Below are positions 45,266-55,744 of a DNA stretch of 64,000 nt, one piece after another. The notes below the pieces were generated by a model that was not told the origin of the DNA, made no database searches, and worked only from the letters and a program-made list of their open reading frames with translations. How positions within the stretch are numbered: the stretch's first letter is position 1; each line of letters starts with the position of its first letter. Position numbers and translations under genes: made by a program. Source of the DNA: Candidatus Uhrbacteria bacterium (GTDB lineage Bacteria; Patescibacteriota; Patescibacteriia; UBA9934); assembly GCA_943359325.1 (NCBI GenBank), contig CALRHD010000004.1:5836-69835 (forward strand), in the 5' to 3' direction.

Positions 45266-45270
45266 TTGGG

Positions 45271-45657
45271 TTAGCCTGTTGACGTTGCCGTACCGAGCTG
45301 GTCGATAACGAACGACGAAATGGCGTAAGCCGAGAGCAAGATGATGAGACCAATGACCGAGTTGAGCAAAATGCCGCGTGCCTTTTTGACGTTGTCTTCG
45401 TTTCCTCCCGCAGTCATCCAGAGGAGTCCTGCGTAGATGATGAGAATGAGGAAGATAACACCGAGGAAGCCGAGCAGTACGCTAATGAGCGAACCGATCG
45501 TCGTTGTGAGACTTCCTGCGTCACCACCAAGACCGGCGGAGTCGTTGACTTCATCGAGCTGGCCTGAGAGGTCAACGGCGTGTGCACTTTGCAGTGCGAT
45601 GGGTGCGAGTGGCAAGGCAGCCATTGCTGCCGCCATGAGTGCGTGTTTGAGCTTCAT
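45271..45657 (-). CDS. TrbC/VirB2-like pilin family protein (paralog 6 of 6)
   Basis: Signal peptide ending AHA. Conserved core LISVLLGFLGVIFLILIIYAGLLWMTAGGNEDNVKKARGILLNSVIGLIILLSAYAISSFVI (two TM helices around the WMTAGGN motif). Confidence 0.7.
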   Translation of the reverse strand: MKLKHALMAAAMAALPLAPIALQSAHAVDLSGQLDEVNDSAGLGGDAGSLTTTIGSLISVLLGFLGVIFLILIIYAGLLWMTAGGNEDNVKKARGILLNSVIGLIILLSAYAISSFVIDQLGTATSTG

Positions 45658-45666
45658 AGCAAAAAA

Positions 45667-46041
45667 TTAATATGTGTTAGTACCTACATAGCGTATCACG
45701 GTTGCCGAAATCGCATAAGAGGATAACACGATTACGAGTCCAATAACCGCGTTGAGCAAAATGCCGCGTGCCTTTTTTACTTGATCGGCGTTCCCTGCAG
45801 CCGTCATCCACAAGAGTCCTGCGTAAATCGTAAGAAAGAGAAAAATAACACCAAGAAATCCGAGCAGTACGCTAATGAGTGTACCGATCATTGGCAGCAA
45901 TCCTTCAGACGAAAATGCGGCGTCTTGCGTTGCACCCGCAGCAACTGTTGCACTGTCGTAACTTATTGCATGCACCAAAAGAGGAGTTGCTGCAACGAAC
46001 AGACAGGCATATAACGTTGCGGTGAGAAGGGGGCGACGCAT
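45667..46041 (-). CDS. TrbC/VirB2-like pilin family protein (paralog 5)
   Basis: Internal ATG (MRRPLLTATLYACLFVAATPLLVHA) chosen to avoid overlap with the upstream paralog. Same conserved core LISVLLGFLGVIFLFLTIYAGLLWMTAAGNADQVKKARGILLNAVIGLVIVLSSYAISA. Confidence 0.7.
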   Translation of the reverse strand: MRRPLLTATLYACLFVAATPLLVHAISYDSATVAAGATQDAAFSSEGLLPMIGTLISVLLGFLGVIFLFLTIYAGLLWMTAAGNADQVKKARGILLNAVIGLVIVLSSYAISATVIRYVGTNTY

Positions 46042-46042
46042 A

Positions 46043-46435
46043 TTACGGTGATCCGTTAATATCTCCAACGGTGAGCGCATTGAAAATCGCCGCAGTGAGC
46101 GCGTACGCTGCAGTAACGATCACAAGACCAATTACAGAATTGACCATTATTTCTCGAGCTTTTTTGACCTGGTCGCTGTTACCTGCCGCAGTCATCCACA
46201 AGAGTCCGGCGTAGAGCATGAGGAGAAGGAATATGACGCCGATCAGCGCAAGAATGGGGGCAATGATGTATGTGCCGATAAAGACGGTAATGCCACCCGT
46301 CGCATTGTTTGTGTCGTAGTTTGCAACCTCTCCAGTGCTAATGAGCCCCGTGTCGCTGAGTGCGATTCTCGCTGAAGCAAGCGCCGGCAGAGAAAGCGTG
46401 AACACGAACAGAAGGGTGACGAGGAGTTTTCGCAT
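46043..46435 (-). CDS. TrbC/VirB2-like pilin family protein (paralog 4)
   Basis: Signal peptide MRKLLVTLLFVFTLSLPALASA. Core ILALIGVIFLLLMLYAGLLWMTAAGNSDQVKKAREIMVNSVIGLVIVTAAYA. Confidence 0.7.
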   Translation of the reverse strand: MRKLLVTLLFVFTLSLPALASARIALSDTGLISTGEVANYDTNNATGGITVFIGTYIIAPILALIGVIFLLLMLYAGLLWMTAAGNSDQVKKAREIMVNSVIGLVIVTAAYALTAAIFNALTVGDINGSP

Positions 46436-46436
46436 A

Positions 46437-46847
46437 CTAGCTTTGTGTCGACGTGATAATGGAGCTAATAACGAAGCTCGCGATGGCGTACGCCGAGAGA
46501 ATAATCGCCAAACCGATGATACCTGCGATAATGAGGTTCTTTGCTTCGGTGACTTTTTCGTCGTTGCCTCCTGCAGTCATCCATTTAAAACCGCCGAGAA
46601 GAATAATGACGACCGCAATAACGCCGAGGAATCCGAGGAGTACACGAATAAGTTGGCCGATGGTCGTTTTGATGTCTGCTTGGCCGAGGCCTGCAGTGTC
46701 GCCGAAGTCGGACGGCAAAATGTCTTCTGCTTCAAGCTGTTGTGCATGTGCAGGAACTGCCTGCATGAGCATTGCACCGCCAAACGGCAGGGCAAGGAGT
46801 GCCGCAACGCTTGCGCCGACCAAGAACCGTGTAAAGGTTTGTGTCAT
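46437..46847 (-). CDS. TrbC/VirB2-like pilin family protein (paralog 3)
   Basis: Signal peptide ending AHA. Core LIRVLLGFLGVIAVVIILLGGFKWMTAGGNDEKVTEAKNLIIAGIIGLAIILSAYAIASFVI. Confidence 0.7.
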   Translation of the reverse strand: MTQTFTRFLVGASVAALLALPFGGAMLMQAVPAHAQQLEAEDILPSDFGDTAGLGQADIKTTIGQLIRVLLGFLGVIAVVIILLGGFKWMTAGGNDEKVTEAKNLIIAGIIGLAIILSAYAIASFVISSIITSTQS

Positions 46848-46890
46848 ACGAAAAAAATAATGAATGGATGTATAAAGTATAGCACATTAA

Positions 46891-47268
46891 CTATAGAGCA
46901 GTCGCACTGCCTGTTGTAAGCGCGTTTATGAGTGCGCTGACAATTGCGTATGCAGCAAACACAACGACAAGTCCGAGTGTTGCCCACACAATAATTTCAC
47001 GACCTTTTTTAATGCGGTCGGGATTTCCGGCACTCGTGAGCCAAAACATGCCACCATAAATAAACATGACAAGTGCGAGCGAACCGATAATAGACAAAAA
47101 GCCTTTGATAACCGTACCGAGAATAATACGCACATCGGTTTCGCCGAGCGGATTGTAGAGTGTGACGTCGGCGGCGTGGACAGGGGAGGCGAAAAGAGAT
47201 CCTGCAAGGCCGGAAACGAGAAAAGAGAAAAGGAGAACGAGGAGTGATGCGGAGAGAAACTTTTTCAT
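46891..47268 (-). CDS. TrbC/VirB2-like pilin family protein (paralog 2, more divergent)
   Basis: Signal peptide MKKFLSASLLVLLFSFLVSGLAGSLFASPVHA. Core FLSIIGSLALVMFIYGGMFWLTSAGNPDRIKKGREIIVWATLGLVVVFAAYAIVSALI. Confidence 0.65.
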   Translation of the reverse strand: MKKFLSASLLVLLFSFLVSGLAGSLFASPVHAADVTLYNPLGETDVRIILGTVIKGFLSIIGSLALVMFIYGGMFWLTSAGNPDRIKKGREIIVWATLGLVVVFAAYAIVSALINALTTGSATAL

Positions 47269-47275
47269 ATCAAAA

Positions 47276-47797
47276 TTATTCTGTCTGTATAATGTCGCTC
47301 GCTTCGGTGCCGATGGTATCTTCTATATTTGTTGTTGCAGGTTCGCCAGTTTTGAGGATGGAAATGACGAGGTTAATGAATGCGTATGCACCAAAGACAA
47401 TGACGAGTCCGATTGCGGCGCCAGTGATAGCATCTTTGCCGCGTTGTACCCGTTCAGGGTAGCCAGCGGAAAGAATCCATTCAAACCCGCCGTATACAAA
47501 TGCGATCAACGCTGCGCTGCCCGAAAGTGCGAGAATAAGATAGCTAATGTTCACCGCTACCTGTAGCGCCTGTTCGACTGTGCACCTTCCTGAATCTTTG
47601 CATGCACAGTGGGCGGTGTCGGCGTCGGTTTCGAATGGCGCGGAACAGATGTTTGCGAAAATAATGCCGTCGCGGCGAATGTCGCTGTATTCGGTGCTGA
47701 TGGTGAGAGCGTGAGCAGAGAATGGAGAAACAAAAAAACCGACGGAGAGAACAAGCCCGAACATGATAGGCGCAAACAAGCGACGGATTGCGTGCAT
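47276..47797 (-). CDS. TrbC/VirB2-like pilin family protein (paralog 1, longest, with Cys-rich insert)
   Basis: Signal peptide ending SAHA. Insert ANICSAPFETDADTAHCACKDSGRCTV. Core LILALSGSAALIAFVYGGFEWILSAGYPERVQRGKDAITGAAIGLVIVFGAYAFINLVISIL. Confidence 0.65.
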   Translation of the reverse strand: MHAIRRLFAPIMFGLVLSVGFFVSPFSAHALTISTEYSDIRRDGIIFANICSAPFETDADTAHCACKDSGRCTVEQALQVAVNISYLILALSGSAALIAFVYGGFEWILSAGYPERVQRGKDAITGAAIGLVIVFGAYAFINLVISILKTGEPATTNIEDTIGTEASDIIQTE

Positions 47798-47839
47798 AAC
47801 TATAAAGAGTATAGCACATCTCTGCTCGCTTCACTGATC

Positions 47840-52040: not shown

Positions 52041-53114
52041 ATGAATCTACGAACCAACAATATCCCCGAATCCGTTTGGTCGCTGATTAATCAAATCGAC
52101 CATCTGAAGGGGCGATGGATTGGAGGAGCAAAACTCAACCCGCAGGCGCTTGGGCGCTTGAAGCGGTCGGTTTTGGTGACATCGACCGGCGCGTCAACGC
52201 GTATCGAAGGATCGAAGCTGTCCGACGAAGACGTGGAGAAGTTCATGCGAGGTTTGTCGCTACAAAAATTTACCGATCGCGACAAACAGGAAGTACAAGG
52301 GTATTTTGAGCTGCTAGAAAATGTCTTTACTTCGTGGAAGCACATCCCATTTACAGAAGGCGTTATCAAACAGCTGCATCGAGAGCTGTTACAGTACACA
52401 AAGAAGGACGAACGGCATCGTGGCGAGTATAAAAAGATGGAGAATTCGGTGGAGGTGTTCGACGAATCGGGTAAATCTGTGAGCGTAATTTTTGAGACTA
52501 CTCCCGCCTATCTTACGCCAAAACGGATGGAGGAGCTCGTTGAACGGACAGCGGGCGCGCTATCCGGCAAAGTCGGATCCGGCTCCGCCGGAAAGCGAAA
52601 AGAGGTTCATTCGCTTATCGTCATTGGAAACTTCCTCGTCGAATTTCTCGCGATCCATCCGTTCCAAGATGGCAATGGGCGTCTTTCACGCATCCTCACG
52701 AATTTATTTTTGTTAAAAGCAGGGTACGAATATGTACCGTACGTCTCCCACGAAAAGCTCATCGAGGACAACAAGACGGATTACTACGTCGCGCTCCGCA
52801 AGAGTCAGTCATCGCTAAGAACCGAGCGCGAGAATGTCACGCCTTGGTTGGAATTCTTCCTAACCGTTTCGCTTGAACAGGCGCGACAGGCTATTGAGTT
52901 ACTTTCGCATGAGAATATTGAAAAGATTCTCTCACCAAAACAGCTTGCGGTGTGGCGGTATCTTGAAACAGTCGACGAAGCAACGGCGGGAGATGTCGCC
53001 AAGGCAGCTGGCGTTGCCCGCCCGACTGTCTCGCAGGCAATTGACGTATTGTTGCGATTGAAGAAGATCGAACGTATTGGGCAGGGACGAACGACGAGAT
53101 ATCGGAAAATTTAG
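52041..53114 (+). CDS. Fic-family protein (Fic/DOC AMPylation fold) with C-terminal winged-HTH
   Basis: Fic motif HPFQDGNGRLSR present. 357 aa. Confidence 0.85.
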   Translation: MNLRTNNIPESVWSLINQIDHLKGRWIGGAKLNPQALGRLKRSVLVTSTGASTRIEGSKLSDEDVEKFMRGLSLQKFTDRDKQEVQGYFELLENVFTSWKHIPFTEGVIKQLHRELLQYTKKDERHRGEYKKMENSVEVFDESGKSVSVIFETTPAYLTPKRMEELVERTAGALSGKVGSGSAGKRKEVHSLIVIGNFLVEFLAIHPFQDGNGRLSRILTNLFLLKAGYEYVPYVSHEKLIEDNKTDYYVALRKSQSSLRTERENVTPWLEFFLTVSLEQARQAIELLSHENIEKILSPKQLAVWRYLETVDEATAGDVAKAAGVARPTVSQAIDVLLRLKKIERIGQGRTTRYRKI

Positions 53115-53216
53115 AAAGCAAAATGACTCCAATATGGAGTCATTTTGTTATGGGACACATCCCTATTGGTCGCCTCGCTTATATGAGTAAGCGCATTGCA
53201 CGATAAGAAATTGTCC

Positions 53217-53306
53217 TGGCGGAGAGGGTGGGATTCGAACCCACGTTACCCTTTCGAGTAAACCACATTTCGAGTGTGGCGCGTTCGACCACTCTGCCAC
53301 CTCTCC
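53217..53306 (-). tRNA. tRNA-Ser (anticodon CGA), long variable arm
   Basis: GGAGAGG acceptor, D-arm GCAGAGTGGTCGAACGC, anticodon stem CCACA/TGTGG with loop CTCGAAA, variable arm TTTACTCGAAAGGGTAACG, T-arm GTGGG-TTCGAAT-CCCAC, discriminator G, CCA encoded. Confidence 0.85.
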
Positions 53307-53316
53307 GTATTTATTC

Positions 53317-53586
53317 TCATTTTTCTGTTCGGTTGCCATGAGCGATCGTATCCCTATATTGCTGGTTAAGCAATCTTCTCCCCTCCGTTGTTTTGAGAAA
53401 TTGCTCCCTTCTTATTGCGTCACTTTCACATTGATAGGCTTCGTAGCCTACGAGAACGGTGGGTCGATATGGTTTCGTTGATTGCACGAGTCCTCTGGAA
53501 TGTTCGTCGAGGCGACGTCGTAAATCTCTTGTCATTCCCTTGTAAAGATCCCCATTTTTCAGTTTGAGAATGTAGACGTACCACAT
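53317..53586 (-). CDS. GIY-YIG-domain nuclease family protein
   Basis: MWYVYILKLKNGDLYKGMTRDLRRRLDEHSRG carries the GIY...YIG/R/E signature. 89 aa. Confidence 0.75.
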   Translation of the reverse strand: MWYVYILKLKNGDLYKGMTRDLRRRLDEHSRGLVQSTKPYRPTVLVGYEAYQCESDAIRREQFLKTTEGRRLLNQQYRDTIAHGNRTEK

Positions 53587-53638
53587 ATAAGAAAGATTCG
53601 TCCGGTCATTCGACCGGACGCCCCGTCGGATGACGGGG

Positions 53639-53729
53639 CGAACCCACGTTACCCTTTCGAGTAAACCACATTTCGAGTGTGGCGCGTTCGACCCCTGCCT
53701 GCCGGCAGGCAGGACTCTGCCACCTCTCC
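53639..53729 (-). pseudogene. disrupted second copy of tRNA-Ser(CGA): 5-prime two-thirds identical to the intact gene, a 20-nt perfect palindrome (CCTGCCTGCCGGCAGGCAGG, 53694-53713) inserted in the D-loop, and 3-prime end truncated within the T-loop
   Basis: Identity to 53233-53290 read directly. Divergence begins after GTGGGTTCG. No acceptor 3-prime strand or CCA. Confidence 0.7.
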
Positions 53730-53802
53730 GGGTTTGCTTGTTGGTCGTTCCAACTTTTGAAGCAGTGAAATGGTAACAAAATCAACAGGAAATGCAAATG
53801 TA

Positions 53803-54066
53803 TCATTCGTATATTTCATGATCACCAACGGCAATGAGGGTTATGCGTCTTGGTTTTCCCTTTGGATAAAAAAAGATCATACGAATTTTATAGTTTACTG
53901 AGGCGCTGTAGGCATCGCGAAGCTTTCCTTGTAGTTTATGGACTCCAATGGATTTGTGGTTGGTTTCGTCCTTGAGCTTGTCGACAGCGATAAAGATCTC
54001 GTTTTGTAGGATTTTTGGCAGCGCACGAAGTTGTCGAAGAAAGCGACGTTCGTATTCAATCTGCAT
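53803..54066 (-). CDS. RelE/ParE-family type II toxin
   Basis: 87 aa (MQIEYERRFLRQLRALPKILQNEIFIAVDKL...ITLIAVGDHEIYE), typical RelE/StbE fold pattern. Overlaps the upstream antitoxin gene by 11 nt. Confidence 0.75.
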   Translation of the reverse strand: MQIEYERRFLRQLRALPKILQNEIFIAVDKLKDETNHKSIGVHKLQGKLRDAYSASVNYKIRMIFFYPKGKPRRITLIAVGDHEIYE

Positions 54067-54292
54067 ACTCTTTTGCCATTCGTTTCACGATAGTGCGGAG
54101 ATCGCCCCTCACTACGTCACCTTCGCTGGCATTCCGCATAGATCGGAGGAGTTCTTCGGTTTCCTGTTCTTCCGAGTACCACGATAAGGCCTGCCGAACT
54201 ACCTCAGCTTTTGTTGATGCGCGACCACGTTTGACCATGGTGTTGATAAAACTCTCTAGTCGTGCGGGAAGGGGAACAGAAAGTGTTGCCAT
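54056..54292 (-). CDS. ribbon-helix-helix (CopG/ParD-like) antitoxin
   Basis: 78 aa. N-terminal RHH (MATLSVPLPARLESFINTMVKRGRASTKAEVVRQALSWY). Confidence 0.7.
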   Translation of the reverse strand: MATLSVPLPARLESFINTMVKRGRASTKAEVVRQALSWYSEEQETEELLRSMRNASEGDVVRGDLRTIVKRMAKEYAD

Positions 54293-54415
54293 ATGAGATT
54301 ATAATATGATGATCTCTTTTGTTCGTCAATCGAAGTGATATAGGGGCGAATGTAAAAAACAAAAAGTCCATCGTAAGGAGCCGATAGCGACTCGCGATGG
54401 ACAGTGGAGTGATCA

Positions 54416-54697
54416 TTATCGACGGAGCGTGGTAATGCGACGAGACTCGATGACGTTGACGCGGACATGGATCTGCATGGGGTTTGGGTCATCGGGCTCT
54501 TGTGTGAGCGAGAAGTGTGCTGAACGGACTGTTTGCGTGAAAACGACTTGTGGTTGGTCGAGAAACCGCACGCCTGTCGGCAAGTGAACACCGTGCATGA
54601 TGTTTAGTTGTGTTCGTGCTGACTCTTTTGTTTCAGCGCGGTTGAGAATGTTGCGAACCGCGGTTTCTACTGCTTCACGTTCATACGGTATGGCCAT
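54416..54697 (-). CDS. hypothetical protein (93 aa)
   Basis: ATG with GAGGAG SD 6 nt upstream. No recognisable domain. Confidence 0.5.
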   Translation of the reverse strand: MAIPYEREAVETAVRNILNRAETKESARTQLNIMHGVHLPTGVRFLDQPQVVFTQTVRSAHFSLTQEPDDPNPMQIHVRVNVIESRRITTLRR

Positions 54698-54716
54698 GAT
54701 TTACTCCTCGGTTGAG

Positions 54717-54743
54717 TAGCCAAAACTTACGGGTTATTGGCTA
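54717..54743. promoter_or_regulatory. third occurrence of the TAGCCAA...TTGGCTA inverted-repeat motif (13-nt spacer), in the divergent region between the 93-aa gene and the DnaA-C-like gene
   Basis: Read directly: TAGCCAAAActtacgggttaTTGGCTAAAAA. Confidence 0.4.
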
Positions 54744-54784
54744 AAAAAGCAAGTTTCTGCTACCGTCCCTGCACCTCTGGAGGA

Positions 54785-55111
54785 ATGATGACGTTGGAAG
54801 GGAAAGCTCGTGTGGTTATTGTATTGGTTTCAGAATGTTATGACGTGCCCGTGGAAGATATCTTAAGCATTCAGAAGACGGCGCGAGTTTTTCGGCCGCG
54901 GCACGTTGCGATGTACTTGTGTCGGAATGACGTGCTCATGTCGTTTCCCGCCATCGGGAGGCTCTTTGTTCGAGACAACTCGACCGTGCAGAATGGATGT
55001 GGGCAGATACGGCGGGCTTTGAAGAAGGAGCCGAAACTCGTGGGGGTCATTGCCGCGTTGCGCAGTCGATATGCCGAATGCATGCAGGAAGGGGCACTGG
55101 CTGTCGCATAA
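54785..55111 (+). CDS. stand-alone DnaA domain-IV-like (DnaA C-terminal HTH) protein
   Basis: 108 aa. VPVEDILSIQKTARVFRPRHVAMYLCRNDVLMSFPAIGRLFVRDNSTVQNGCGQIRRAL aligns with the DnaA DNA-binding domain IV signature (RQ.AMYL...S...IG..FG.RDH.TV). ATG-ATG with TGGAGG SD. The ORF-track TTG start at 54737 lies inside the palindromic motif. Confidence 0.7.
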   Translation: MMTLEGKARVVIVLVSECYDVPVEDILSIQKTARVFRPRHVAMYLCRNDVLMSFPAIGRLFVRDNSTVQNGCGQIRRALKKEPKLVGVIAALRSRYAECMQEGALAVA

Positions 55112-55165
55112 CCCTCGAAAGAAGTATCATCGGCGCACAGCTCCTTGTGCGCCGAAAATGTTTTT

Positions 55166-55744
55166 ATGATGACTGCAAAATTTATCACAAGCGCAACGAA
55201 CGGAGCCGGTTTGCCTGTTTCGGATAAGCCACAGATTGCACTTGTGGGGCGGTCGAATGTGGGGAAGTCGTCACTCATTAATCATCTCACTCAACAAAAA
55301 AGCCTCGCCCGTGTCAGTTCGGCTCCCGGAAGAACACAAACGATGAATGTGTACGAAATCGACAGGCGCTATTTTCTTGTCGACCTTCCCGGCTATGGCT
55401 ATGCGAAAACGTCGAAAGAAAAACGCGCAGGTTTCGCAGAAATGATTGAGCGATATCTCACGGACACGCCGCAACTGGCACTTGTGCTTGTGGTGATTGA
55501 CGCTTTCGTTGGGCCGACGGATTTAGATCACGATATGCTCGAGCTCCTTCATTCGCTTGGAAGGCCTGTGATTATTGTTGTGAATAAAATTGATAAACTT
55601 TCAAAAAGTGAATCTGTCTTACTCATGCAGAAACTTTCTGCTGAATATGTGGATGCAAAATTTATTCCGCATTCCGTCGAAACAGACAAGCATCGTGGAG
55701 AAATTTTAGAGTCGATTGATGTTGCTATTCGTGCAGCGCGATAG
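55166..55744 (+). CDS. engB: ribosome-biogenesis GTPase YihA/YsxC (EngB)
   Basis: G1 motif GRSNVGKSS, G3 DLPGYG, G4 NKID. 3-prime end overlaps the convergent ligase gene by about 20 nt. Confidence 0.85.
   Translation: MMTAKFITSATNGAGLPVSDKPQIALVGRSNVGKSSLINHLTQQKSLARVSSAPGRTQTMNVYEIDRRYFLVDLPGYGYAKTSKEKRAGFAEMIERYLTDTPQLALVLVVIDAFVGPTDLDHDMLELLHSLGRPVIIVVNKIDKLSKSESVLLMQKLSAEYVDAKFIPHSVETDKHRGEILESIDVAIRAAR

Follow-up and report, generated by a model that had tools for sequence, protein, structure and literature searches.

The window analysed in this study is a 64-kb stretch (64,000 nucleotides) of contig CALRHD010000004.1 from a Candidatus Uhrbacteria bacterium (GenBank assembly GCA_943359325.1). 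Positions 53217-53729 of the window, on the reverse strand, carry an intact tRNA-Ser(CGA) gene, a gene for an 89-amino-acid (aa) GIY-YIG nuclease and a partial, interrupted copy of the same tRNA gene (hereafter copy 2). We consider this segment to be probably (at roughly 0.6 by our own estimate) one copy of a family of homing-endonuclease-like selfish cassettes resident in tRNA genes, the tRNA being kept functional by partial duplication of the target. We found the same micro-architecture in a further 80 genomes, where it occupies various tRNA genes with unrelated surroundings. This recurrence bears out a first-pass annotation of the region in so far as the latter had seen the footprint of a mobile element in the tRNA duplicate and the homing-type nuclease. 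The hairpins that interrupt the partial tRNA copies covary between loci, and the nuclease is under purifying selection.

In the literature that we searched, no description of a tRNA duplicate, a GIY-YIG gene and a double hairpin together was found; the coverage of the search was incomplete, and a prior description is possible. If our reading is correct, partial duplication of the target would represent, besides introns and rRNA intervening sequences, a third means by which a selfish nuclease gene can reside in an essential structural-RNA gene of a surviving host.

The partial tRNA-Ser copy and the nuclease gene

ARAGORN, Rfam and Pfam recovered every gene that had been listed for the region before, in the same order and at the same positions. 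The segment on which we focus is composed as follows.

53217-53306, reverse strand: intact tRNA-Ser(CGA) gene with encoded CCA (ARAGORN; Rfam tRNA, 57.3 bits)
53317-53586, reverse strand: gene for the GIY-YIG nuclease, 89 aa (PF01541, E = 2.6e-13)
53587-53598, reverse strand: AATC (T-loop nt 72-75, derived from the target) and spacer TTTCTTAT up to the ATG of the nuclease gene
53599-53618, reverse strand: hairpin 2, TCCGGTC-GAAT-GACCGGA + CG
53619-53638, reverse strand: hairpin 1, CCCCGTC-ATCC-GACGGGG + CG, after the CG of the T-loop
53639-53693, reverse strand: nt 17-71 of tRNA-Ser(CGA) in copy 2, comprising the D-arm, the anticodon arm with CGA, the variable arm, the 5' strand of the T-stem and TTCG (55/55 identical)
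53694-53713: perfect 20-nt palindrome CCTGCCTGCCGGCAGGCAGG with loop CCGG, in the D-loop of copy 2 (unique in the window, 0 expected by chance)
53714-53729, reverse strand: nt 1-16 of tRNA-Ser(CGA) in copy 2, from the 5' strand of the acceptor stem to the start of the D-loop (no difference from the intact gene in the alignment)

Copy 2 (53595-53729, reverse strand) matches the intact tRNA gene at 75 of 75 bases, distributed over three blocks (nt 1-16, 17-71 and 72-75). The second block ends in GGGTTCG, and the T-arm sequence of the tRNA-Ser is GGGTTCGAATCCC. The first-pass annotation had described copy 2 as identical to the intact gene as far as the variable arm and as broken in the T-loop. 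The identity was confirmed in full, whereas the break is only partly as described: the T-loop accommodates a 40-nt insertion (53599-53638) of two 9-bp hairpins between TTCG and AATC, after which the tRNA sequence resumes for 4 nt. A second interruption, namely the palindrome in the D-loop, had been missed, and it belongs to a hairpin family other than that of the T-loop pair, in which the loops are ATNC and GNAT. The duplicated part corresponds to the 5' three-quarters of the tRNA gene, as copy 2 lacks the final 15 nt of the 3' end, and no tRNA 3' exon is present after it. Rfam reported no family, group I introns included, over copy 2 and its hairpins at E values up to 1. The spacer TTTCTTAT recurs 10 nt past the intact tRNA, which itself begins 10 nt past the stop codon of the nuclease gene.

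Seven perfect hairpins (stem of at least 8 bp, loop of 4 nt) were detected in the entire window, and a chance origin of those in copy 2 is excluded because three of the seven sit within its 135 nt. Hairpin 2 together with its T-rich tail was also flagged as terminator-like. No other copy of the double hairpin was found within the window, and only one of its seven tRNA genes carries the cassette. An assembly artefact is likewise excluded, because four contigs share the identical arrangement and an independent sample (ERZ27280326; L105) differs from it by one single-nucleotide polymorphism.

An independent assembly of the same strain (L104; Logan ERR3719144) yielded a contig that ends within the partial tRNA copy, 139 nt past the neighbouring RelE gene. 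Cassettes in tRNA genes fragment short-read assemblies, as at L104, and they would explain contig breaks at tRNA sites. Overlaps with the tRNA and pseudo-tRNA (53163-53339 and 53606-53806; L001 9768-9938 and 10248-10424) were also noticed for public gene calls (56 and 58 aa) and for mechanically called open reading frames (ORFs; 58-66 aa). These small ORFs are almost certainly spurious. The cassette would account for spurious tRNA-side ORFs in Patescibacteria, as well as for many genes annotated as "GIY-YIG nuclease family protein" in these bacteria, and pipelines for tRNA annotation should recognise hairpin-bearing pseudo-tRNAs.

Judging from its sequence, the 89-aa protein is a stand-alone GIY-YIG nuclease of the UPF0213/Slx1-like branch. 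The GIY-YIG motifs appear as YVY (residues 3-5) and YKG (residues 15-17), the Pfam match extends over residues 1-70 with 50.5 bits against a cut-off of 22.6, and the catalytic residues Y5, Y15, R25, H29 and E61 are invariant in an alignment of 21 homologues. The nearest solved structures are those of the UPF0213 proteins BH0048 and EF2693 (PDB 1zg2 and 1ywl; E = 1e-11 and 2e-9, respectively), followed by SLX1 (E = 0.03). The nucleases of the family are minimal stand-alone proteins of ~81-95 aa, and they resemble the UPF0213/YhbQ proteins and SLX1 in being a single catalytic domain of ~90-100 aa. We found no assigned function for UPF0213. Distant relatives in Sinorhizobium and Rhizobium phages are not located beside tRNAs.

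Recurrence at other tRNA genes

We fetched 80 loci from the genomes of different species by homology to the 89-aa protein (nuclease homologues 54-72% identical). The loci belong mostly to Patescibacteria, and the others to Omnitrophota, Verrucomicrobiota, Kiritimatiellota and Lentisphaerota. The counts given below were obtained with ARAGORN and local scripts over 83 ORFs. In 51 of the 83, a tRNA on the same strand starts between -15 and +40 nt from the stop codon, which is sometimes located within the tRNA, and in 14 a same-strand tRNA ends 0-60 nt ahead of the ATG. Altogether, 81 of the 83 ORFs abut a tRNA and/or a hairpin-bearing fragment, that is, they occupy the position typical of a free-standing homing endonuclease, in or beside a highly conserved gene. 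The host tRNAs comprise ~12 types: Ser with all anticodons (~60% of the cases), Arg, Lys, Asn, Gly, Thr, Pro, Met, Cys, Val, Ile and Tyr. The nuclease is conserved at the level of the protein. Synonymous sites are saturated between species among the 74 ORFs with an intact 81-codon core, and the ratio of nonsynonymous to synonymous substitution rates (dN/dS), where computable, was ~0.14 across the family, indicating purifying selection. Shine-Dalgarno sequences at the ORF starts showed no difference from those of control ORFs.

The cassettes were classified into two types. Type B, which is the type of the window (~59 ORFs), consists of the 5' part of a tRNA, the double hairpin, 3-8 nt of local tRNA sequence, a spacer of 9-46 nt, the ORF and an intact tRNA of the same type. 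The 5' part covers nt 1 to ~57 of the tRNA upstream of the ORF, stops at the TTCG of the T-loop or at the CG of the anticodon, and matches the intact tRNA perfectly over 56-73 nt in at least 10 loci. In type A (~14 ORFs), an intact tRNA is followed by the ORF, the hairpins and the rest of the tRNA on its 3' side. At its 3' end, the type A ORF crosses a T-arm sequence of 6-7 nt (GGTTCG) into the hairpins, the stop codon often being the TGA in a GAATGA loop, and the 3' tRNA part, which includes 1-4 nt of trailer, is often identical to the intact copy. Common to both types is an ORF on the tRNA strand, with an intact tRNA at one end and, at the other, a partial duplicate that is truncated on the ORF-proximal side and bears the hairpins in its loop. 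No large ORF of any kind was found inside the 80 other cassettes.

Two further observations concern the ends of the ORFs. In type A loci such as L057 (2501), L063 (2500), L078 (146) and L068 (2500), the ATG directly follows the upstream tRNA (its 3' end or CCA) or overlaps it by 1 base, so that 3' processing of the tRNA would leave a leaderless mRNA. At the opposite end, the C-terminal tails of some nuclease homologues (e.g., ...HTTGRPVE in P0014) are translated hairpin DNA.

More elaborate forms were also encountered. A complete element at L088 is composed of the 5' half of an old tRNA-Val, hairpins, AATCC, an intact tRNA-Val of different sequence, the ORF, GGGTTCG, an identical hairpin pair and a 3' half, and this final 3' half matches the old tRNA-Val 5' half. 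In several type B loci (L002, L023, L033, L060 and L067), a second hairpin pair and a 3' tRNA fragment follow the intact tRNA, the fragment being sometimes unlike the 3' end of that tRNA. Forms devoid of the ORF, made up of an intact tRNA, 0-60 nt, GGTTCG, the hairpins and a 3' part, occur at two tRNA-Ser genes in L065 and in L024, L057 and L074. At L074 (2370-2800), the intact tRNA-Pro(CGG) is followed by a tandem array of at least three units, each with a spacer, GAGTTCG, the double hairpin and the 3' part of tRNA-Pro; the array is interrupted by a masked run of N. Tandem ORFs were found in L020, L031, L068, L071 and L080.

Types A and B, host tRNAs and phyla are interleaved in the clustering of the proteins. 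For instance, 78% protein identity and near-identical hairpins link L059 (Verrucomicrobiota, tRNA-Asn) with L072 (Kiritimatiellia, tRNA-Thr), and each duplicate matches the local tRNA. According to the first-pass annotation, the same gene order with the broken tRNA copy in distant relatives would speak for an old fixed feature. The micro-architecture is indeed conserved, whereas the wider gene order is not: in relatives with EngB proteins 59-74% identical, the neighbourhoods are unrelated and uninformative on presence or absence. The ~12 tRNA species, the differing contexts and the lack of conservation in the wider order point to a mobile cassette of stereotyped form and not to a locus fixed long ago.

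Hairpin pairs were located by their loop cores and 20-nt spacing only, and since stem complementarity played no part in the search, circularity was avoided in the test of covariation. The orientation relative to the tRNA/ORF strand is uniform in 54 of 54 pairs, hairpin 1 with the loop ATNC being followed by hairpin 2 with the loop GNAT. In a gapless alignment of 44 pairs (the one in the window and 43 homologous ones), in which the hairpins have 9 and 7 bp, 99.3% of 704 cells are paired, compared with 19-42% in slid controls. Two-sided changes were seen at 11 of the 16 base pairs, amounting to 110 compensatory cells. The stems show no excess of G:U pairs (7 versus 5 other mismatches), a pattern that would fit pairing at the DNA level or the copying of perfect palindromes. 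The hairpins are near-identical within a locus, and the stems differ between genomes. Many partial copies also have a single hairpin of the same family around the D-loop, and in an unbiased scan the ATNC/GNAT family made up 152 of the 243 perfect hairpins in the loci. The covarying double hairpin is a new cis element, and could reveal a hairpin-based mechanism of DNA insertion. A third type of hairpin, with the loop GTTTAT (e.g., ggggtttatcccc), takes the place of hairpin 2 in L019, L026 and L034.

The insertion always follows YCG, either in the T-loop (TTCG^AATC) or in an anticodon loop containing CG, as in CTCG^AAA (Ser-CGA), TTCG^GAA (Arg-TCG), TCCG^AAG (Arg-CCG) and TTCG^GGT (Pro-CGG). The form CG-[18]-CG-[18]-CG is found in 41 of 53 distinct hairpin-pair sequences, and two pairs in TTCA T-loops read CA-[18]-TG-[18]-CA. 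These dinucleotide flanks suggest a 2-bp duplication of the target dinucleotide.

Proposed mechanism and rival explanations

GIY-YIG enzymes (I-TevI-type cleavage) typically leave a 2-nt 3' overhang. We propose that the nuclease cuts tRNA-gene DNA at a loop-coding YCG. TTCGAA is palindromic, and a cut after CG on both strands would generate an overhang of this very kind, and the CG flanking each 18-nt hairpin would fit it as well. Recombinational repair from a cassette-bearing copy, with the tRNA halves as homology arms, would then install the cassette, and the host would survive because an intact tRNA is always regenerated beside the disrupted copy. In the dispensable copy, the hairpins would destroy the cut site; the resulting block to re-cleavage would prevent loss of the ORF by single-strand annealing between the direct repeats. 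The ORF may be expressed by co-transcription with the tRNA. As the gap of -15 to +40 nt in type B leaves no room for a promoter, we infer that the intact tRNA must be transcribed through the cassette; the essential tRNA would thus depend on read-through of the cassette, which would make silencing of the latter costly. The scheme also provides a substrate hypothesis for stand-alone UPF0213 GIY-YIG proteins, namely that they cut at a YCG within a hairpin loop and leave 2-nt 3' overhangs. A model with a circular intermediate of the Campbell type and an attachment (att) site in the T-loop was rejected, as it predicts a downstream copy without the 5' part of the tRNA, which was not observed.

The cassette resembles several known systems in part. 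In the Allomyces atp6-orf360 type, a mitochondrial endonuclease ORF is said to bring a part-copy of the host gene, the displaced fragment being left as a pseudogene. As in the cassette, a selfish nuclease ORF would lie between a functional gene and its partial duplicate, and function would be kept by duplication, not by splicing. The targets of this type are, however, protein-coding genes of organelles and the nucleases are larger, whereas the cassette targets tRNA genes in free-living or episymbiotic bacteria. SegB, encoded in the tRNA gene cluster of phage T4, is reportedly a free-standing GIY-YIG homing gene that is thought to cut the tRNA-gene DNA of genomes without the ORF and to be copied in by repair. 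The cassette shares with SegB of T-even phages a GIY-YIG gene outside introns, among tRNA genes. Unlike the cassette nucleases, Seg proteins have at least 200 aa and DNA-binding domains, are phage-borne, and are accompanied by neither a partial tRNA duplication nor a double hairpin.

Mitochondrial genomes of chytrids and fission yeast contain double-hairpin elements (DHEs), described in PMC10085805 (citing Paquin et al. 2000) as short, GC-rich, putatively mobile sequences in intergenic regions and rRNA genes, near-identical within a genome. The resemblance to the cassette, two adjacent stable hairpins repeated as a unit, is one of form only, and no relationship in sequence is to be expected. 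As far as that account goes, DHEs have no link to tRNA loops or a GIY-YIG gene, whereas the hairpins of the cassette have ATNC/GNAT tetraloops and a fixed orientation. Closer to the cassette in taxonomy, GIY-YIG ORFs occur in non-intron insertions of rRNA genes in the Candidate Phyla Radiation (CPR), regarded as a niche of homing endonucleases (Tsurumaki et al. 2024, PMC11270868); tRNA genes are not mentioned in that paper. These insertions and the cassette share the phylum, the small GIY-YIG family (P0034, 41-49% identical), a structural-RNA gene as the site and the lack of a ribozyme. The CPR rRNA insertions differ from the cassette in being flanked by a long inverted repeat, without target duplication or ATNC/GNAT hairpins. 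Distant relatives of the nuclease (41-49% identical) lack the hairpins as well, P0034 being inside an insertion in a 23S rRNA gene and others away from tRNAs. At L097 (1290-1854; GCA_000998135.1), a relative in this identity range lies in a 23S rRNA gene with 17-nt inverted repeat flanks, and a LAGLIDADG ORF is present upstream in the same rRNA gene. Finally, islands and prophages at tRNA sites also combine a tRNA gene with a nearby partial direct repeat; unlike the cassette, they depend on an integrase, bring in kilobases of cargo and leave a duplicate of the tRNA 3' end.

Several observations weigh against homing by an endonuclease as we propose it. (i) The intact tRNA copy retains the presumed cut site, and self-immunity is left unexplained. 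(ii) The 89-aa protein is a catalytic domain alone, whereas characterised GIY-YIG homing enzymes have a DNA-binding domain, and a sequence-specific module of this kind, binding a long target, is a trait of free-standing homing endonucleases. (iii) No pair of ORFs exceeds 80% nucleotide identity, so that there is no sign of recent within-genome transposition, and two copies within one genome are 72-75% identical. (iv) Neither the cassette nor its clade was found in 2.9 million viral contigs (IMG/VR; hairpin and protein searches), leaving no known vector; 50,697 phage records and the plasmid records did not contain the clade either, the relatives there being less than 48% identical and not beside tRNAs. 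(v) Neither an empty-site allele nor a circular junction was found for the locus in the window. The exact tRNA pattern gave 0 matches in metagenomes, with a shorter pattern the one match was an unrelated contig that begins at the tRNA, and look-ups with the exact Fic and RelE proteins returned the same arrangement only, plus a contig breaking at copy 2. (vi) Hairpin-bearing partial duplicates also occur without the ORF. (vii) Duplicates agree in sequence with every new host tRNA, a result that simple homologous homing from one tRNA to another is unable to yield, and the chimeric tRNAs that cross-tRNA homologous homing predicts were not seen; this simple form of homing is rejected. In addition, the partial copies remain identical to the tRNA despite old ORF lineages, an identity that could come from recurrent homing or gene conversion.

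The matching of duplicates to each host tRNA and the lasting identity of the partial copies fit better with a rival explanation, in which the double hairpin is the primary mobile agent. Comparable to DHEs or to miniature inverted-repeat transposable elements, it would insert at loop-coding YCG as single-stranded or cruciform DNA and create variable target duplications of 20-80 bp, and the GIY-YIG protein would serve as its structure-specific nuclease, in effect as a transposase. We regard this explanation as rather unlikely, albeit a good deal of evidence can be read in its favour. Hairpins with a partial tRNA duplicate exist without the ORF (twice in L065, in L024 and L057, and in the array of L074), and extra single hairpins of the same family are found in the D-loops of partial copies. 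Hairpins that are near-identical in one locus and different in their stems between genomes are as expected of such an agent, and so are duplicates that match the local tRNA of whatever type, as a target duplication would. The dinucleotide flanks resemble a 2-bp duplication, the absence of G:U enrichment fits DNA-level pairing, and the closest solved relatives of the nuclease are UPF0213 proteins and then the structure-specific SLX1. Nevertheless, the ORF-side boundaries of the duplicates are variable, not fixed, recombination between direct repeats can explain the ORF-less forms, and the 64-kb window has no other copy of the hairpin. Furthermore, we know of no GIY-YIG transposase in bacteria.

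In its most specific form, the hairpin-agent explanation would posit a GIY-YIG "transposase" element: a minimal UPF0213-type nuclease acts on hairpin, cruciform or single-stranded DNA, recognises YCG in stem-loop-coding DNA (T-loops, CG anticodon loops and the loops of its own hairpins), and inserts a cassette ending in hairpins, whereby 2 bp (CG) and a tRNA segment of 20-80 bp are duplicated and the essential gene is always regenerated. We put this forward tentatively, as a speculation for which the odds are low; if true, it would provide the first function for the UPF0213/YhbQ family. It is similarly doubtful whether the cassette is a mechanistically new kind of element.

Another explanation is that the cassette is a domesticated, vertically inherited module of benefit to the host, for maintenance of the tRNA gene, for defence, or as a regulatory leader RNA of the downstream tRNA. 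Strong purifying selection combined with saturated synonymous divergence, and hence an old lineage, is compatible with domestication, as are the intactness of almost all ORFs, the lasting identity of the partial copies to the tRNA, the orientation of the hairpins relative to transcription, fixed in 54 of 54 cases, and the attenuator-like appearance of hairpin 2 and its T-rich tail in the window. A host function is nevertheless improbable in view of the single cassette among the seven tRNA genes of the window and the variation of host tRNA and ORF side among closely clustering proteins. Moreover, disruptive insertions and truncations accumulate in the partial copies, the tandem and nested arrays are typical of selfish DNA, and relatives of the nuclease are found in rRNA insertion sequences.

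tRNA genes are classic integration sites, and toxin-antitoxin (TA) and Fic genes are common cargo of islands. On this ground, the first-pass annotation had regarded the ~3 kb with the Fic, nuclease, TA and DnaA-C genes as one integrative islet, which a recombinase acting in trans would have placed at tRNA-Ser, leaving the truncated tRNA as an att scar. Differing neighbourhoods of EngB relatives would agree with such an islet. We consider it very improbable. What is duplicated, and abuts the ORF, is the first 75 nt of the tRNA and not its 3' end, which already contradicts the reading as an att scar, and the intact copy is only ~330 bp away with the nuclease gene alone in between. As the annotation had correctly noted, no integrase is present inside the islet (neither the ORF list nor Pfam gave a recombinase between LemA and EngB), and none of the loci needs one. 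The cassette itself spans only ~0.5 kb, and the same unit of duplicate, ORF and tRNA is found in the 80 other genomes without the proposed cargo: no homologue of the Fic, RelE, ParD, 93-aa or DnaA_C proteins was detected by tblastn within 2.5 kb of those cassettes. GC content is flat across the region (0.48-0.52), without any compositional anomaly.

Patescibacteria carry tRNA introns of group I (PMC13011429), which are a different thing from the cassette. That copy 2 is itself a functional non-canonical tRNA or tRNA-like RNA, with its insertions removed in an intron-like manner or tolerated, is hardly credible: its fold is unusually stable as RNA (z = -4.7) and has a weak, G:U-rich closing helix (GGAGAGG-UCUUUCU), but it escapes ARAGORN and Rfam even at E = 1, lacks the 3' strand of the T-stem, the 3' strand of the acceptor stem and CCA, shows no signature of a group I intron, has a closing helix that is not conserved at other loci, and is accompanied by an identical intact tRNA 330 bp downstream. 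The intron- or intein-like invasion considered in the first-pass annotation is not supported, given the same lack of an Rfam intron and of a 3' exon past copy 2. A reading of copy 2 as a tRNA with introns was rejected because the 3' strands of the T-stem and the acceptor stem cannot both form and the closing helix of the minimum-free-energy structure is not conserved.

Neighbouring genes

The genes around the cassette are as follows.

52041-53114, forward strand: SoFic-like Fic protein with a C-terminal winged-helix domain (Pfam Fic, E = 1.5e-13; PADLOC PDLC03963 over the whole length, E = 2.6e-42)
53803-54066, reverse strand: RelE/HigB-like toxin (weak matches, E = 0.004 and 0.0018)
54056-54292, reverse strand: ParD antitoxin of the ribbon-helix-helix (RHH) type (E = 4e-5 and 4e-9)
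53803-54292, reverse strand: the ParD/RHH antitoxin and RelE/HigB-like toxin genes as a pair, overlapping by 11 nt, with a promoter-like site at 54301-54329
54416-54697, reverse strand: 93-aa ORF without family match
54737-55111, forward strand: DnaA_C-only (domain IV) protein (E = 9e-18)
55145-55744, forward strand: EngB

The Fic, RelE/ParD, 93-aa and DnaA-C genes are neighbours outside the cassette. The region that they occupy may be variable, but nothing ties these genes to the tRNA duplication. By homology, the Fic protein is a candidate for a single-gene, SoFic-like anti-phage defence. The match of ParD to TIGR02606 (E = 4e-9) is under the curated cut-off, and those of the toxin are weak (E = 0.002-0.004). 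An exhaustive HMMER search of 1.84 billion representatives gave five homologues of the 93-aa orphan (best E = 5e-15), and for the DnaA_C protein no close relative was found.

Between the stop codon of the Fic gene and the trailer of tRNA-Ser, at 53111-53153, lies a hairpin (AAAATGACTCCATATTGGAGTCATTTT) flanked on each side by runs of T and A, which looks like a bidirectional intrinsic terminator. Farther away, at ~45270-47800 on the reverse strand (L001 15790-18316), the contig's public annotation shows matches to T4SS_pilin (PF18895) for six small genes in tandem (124-173 aa).

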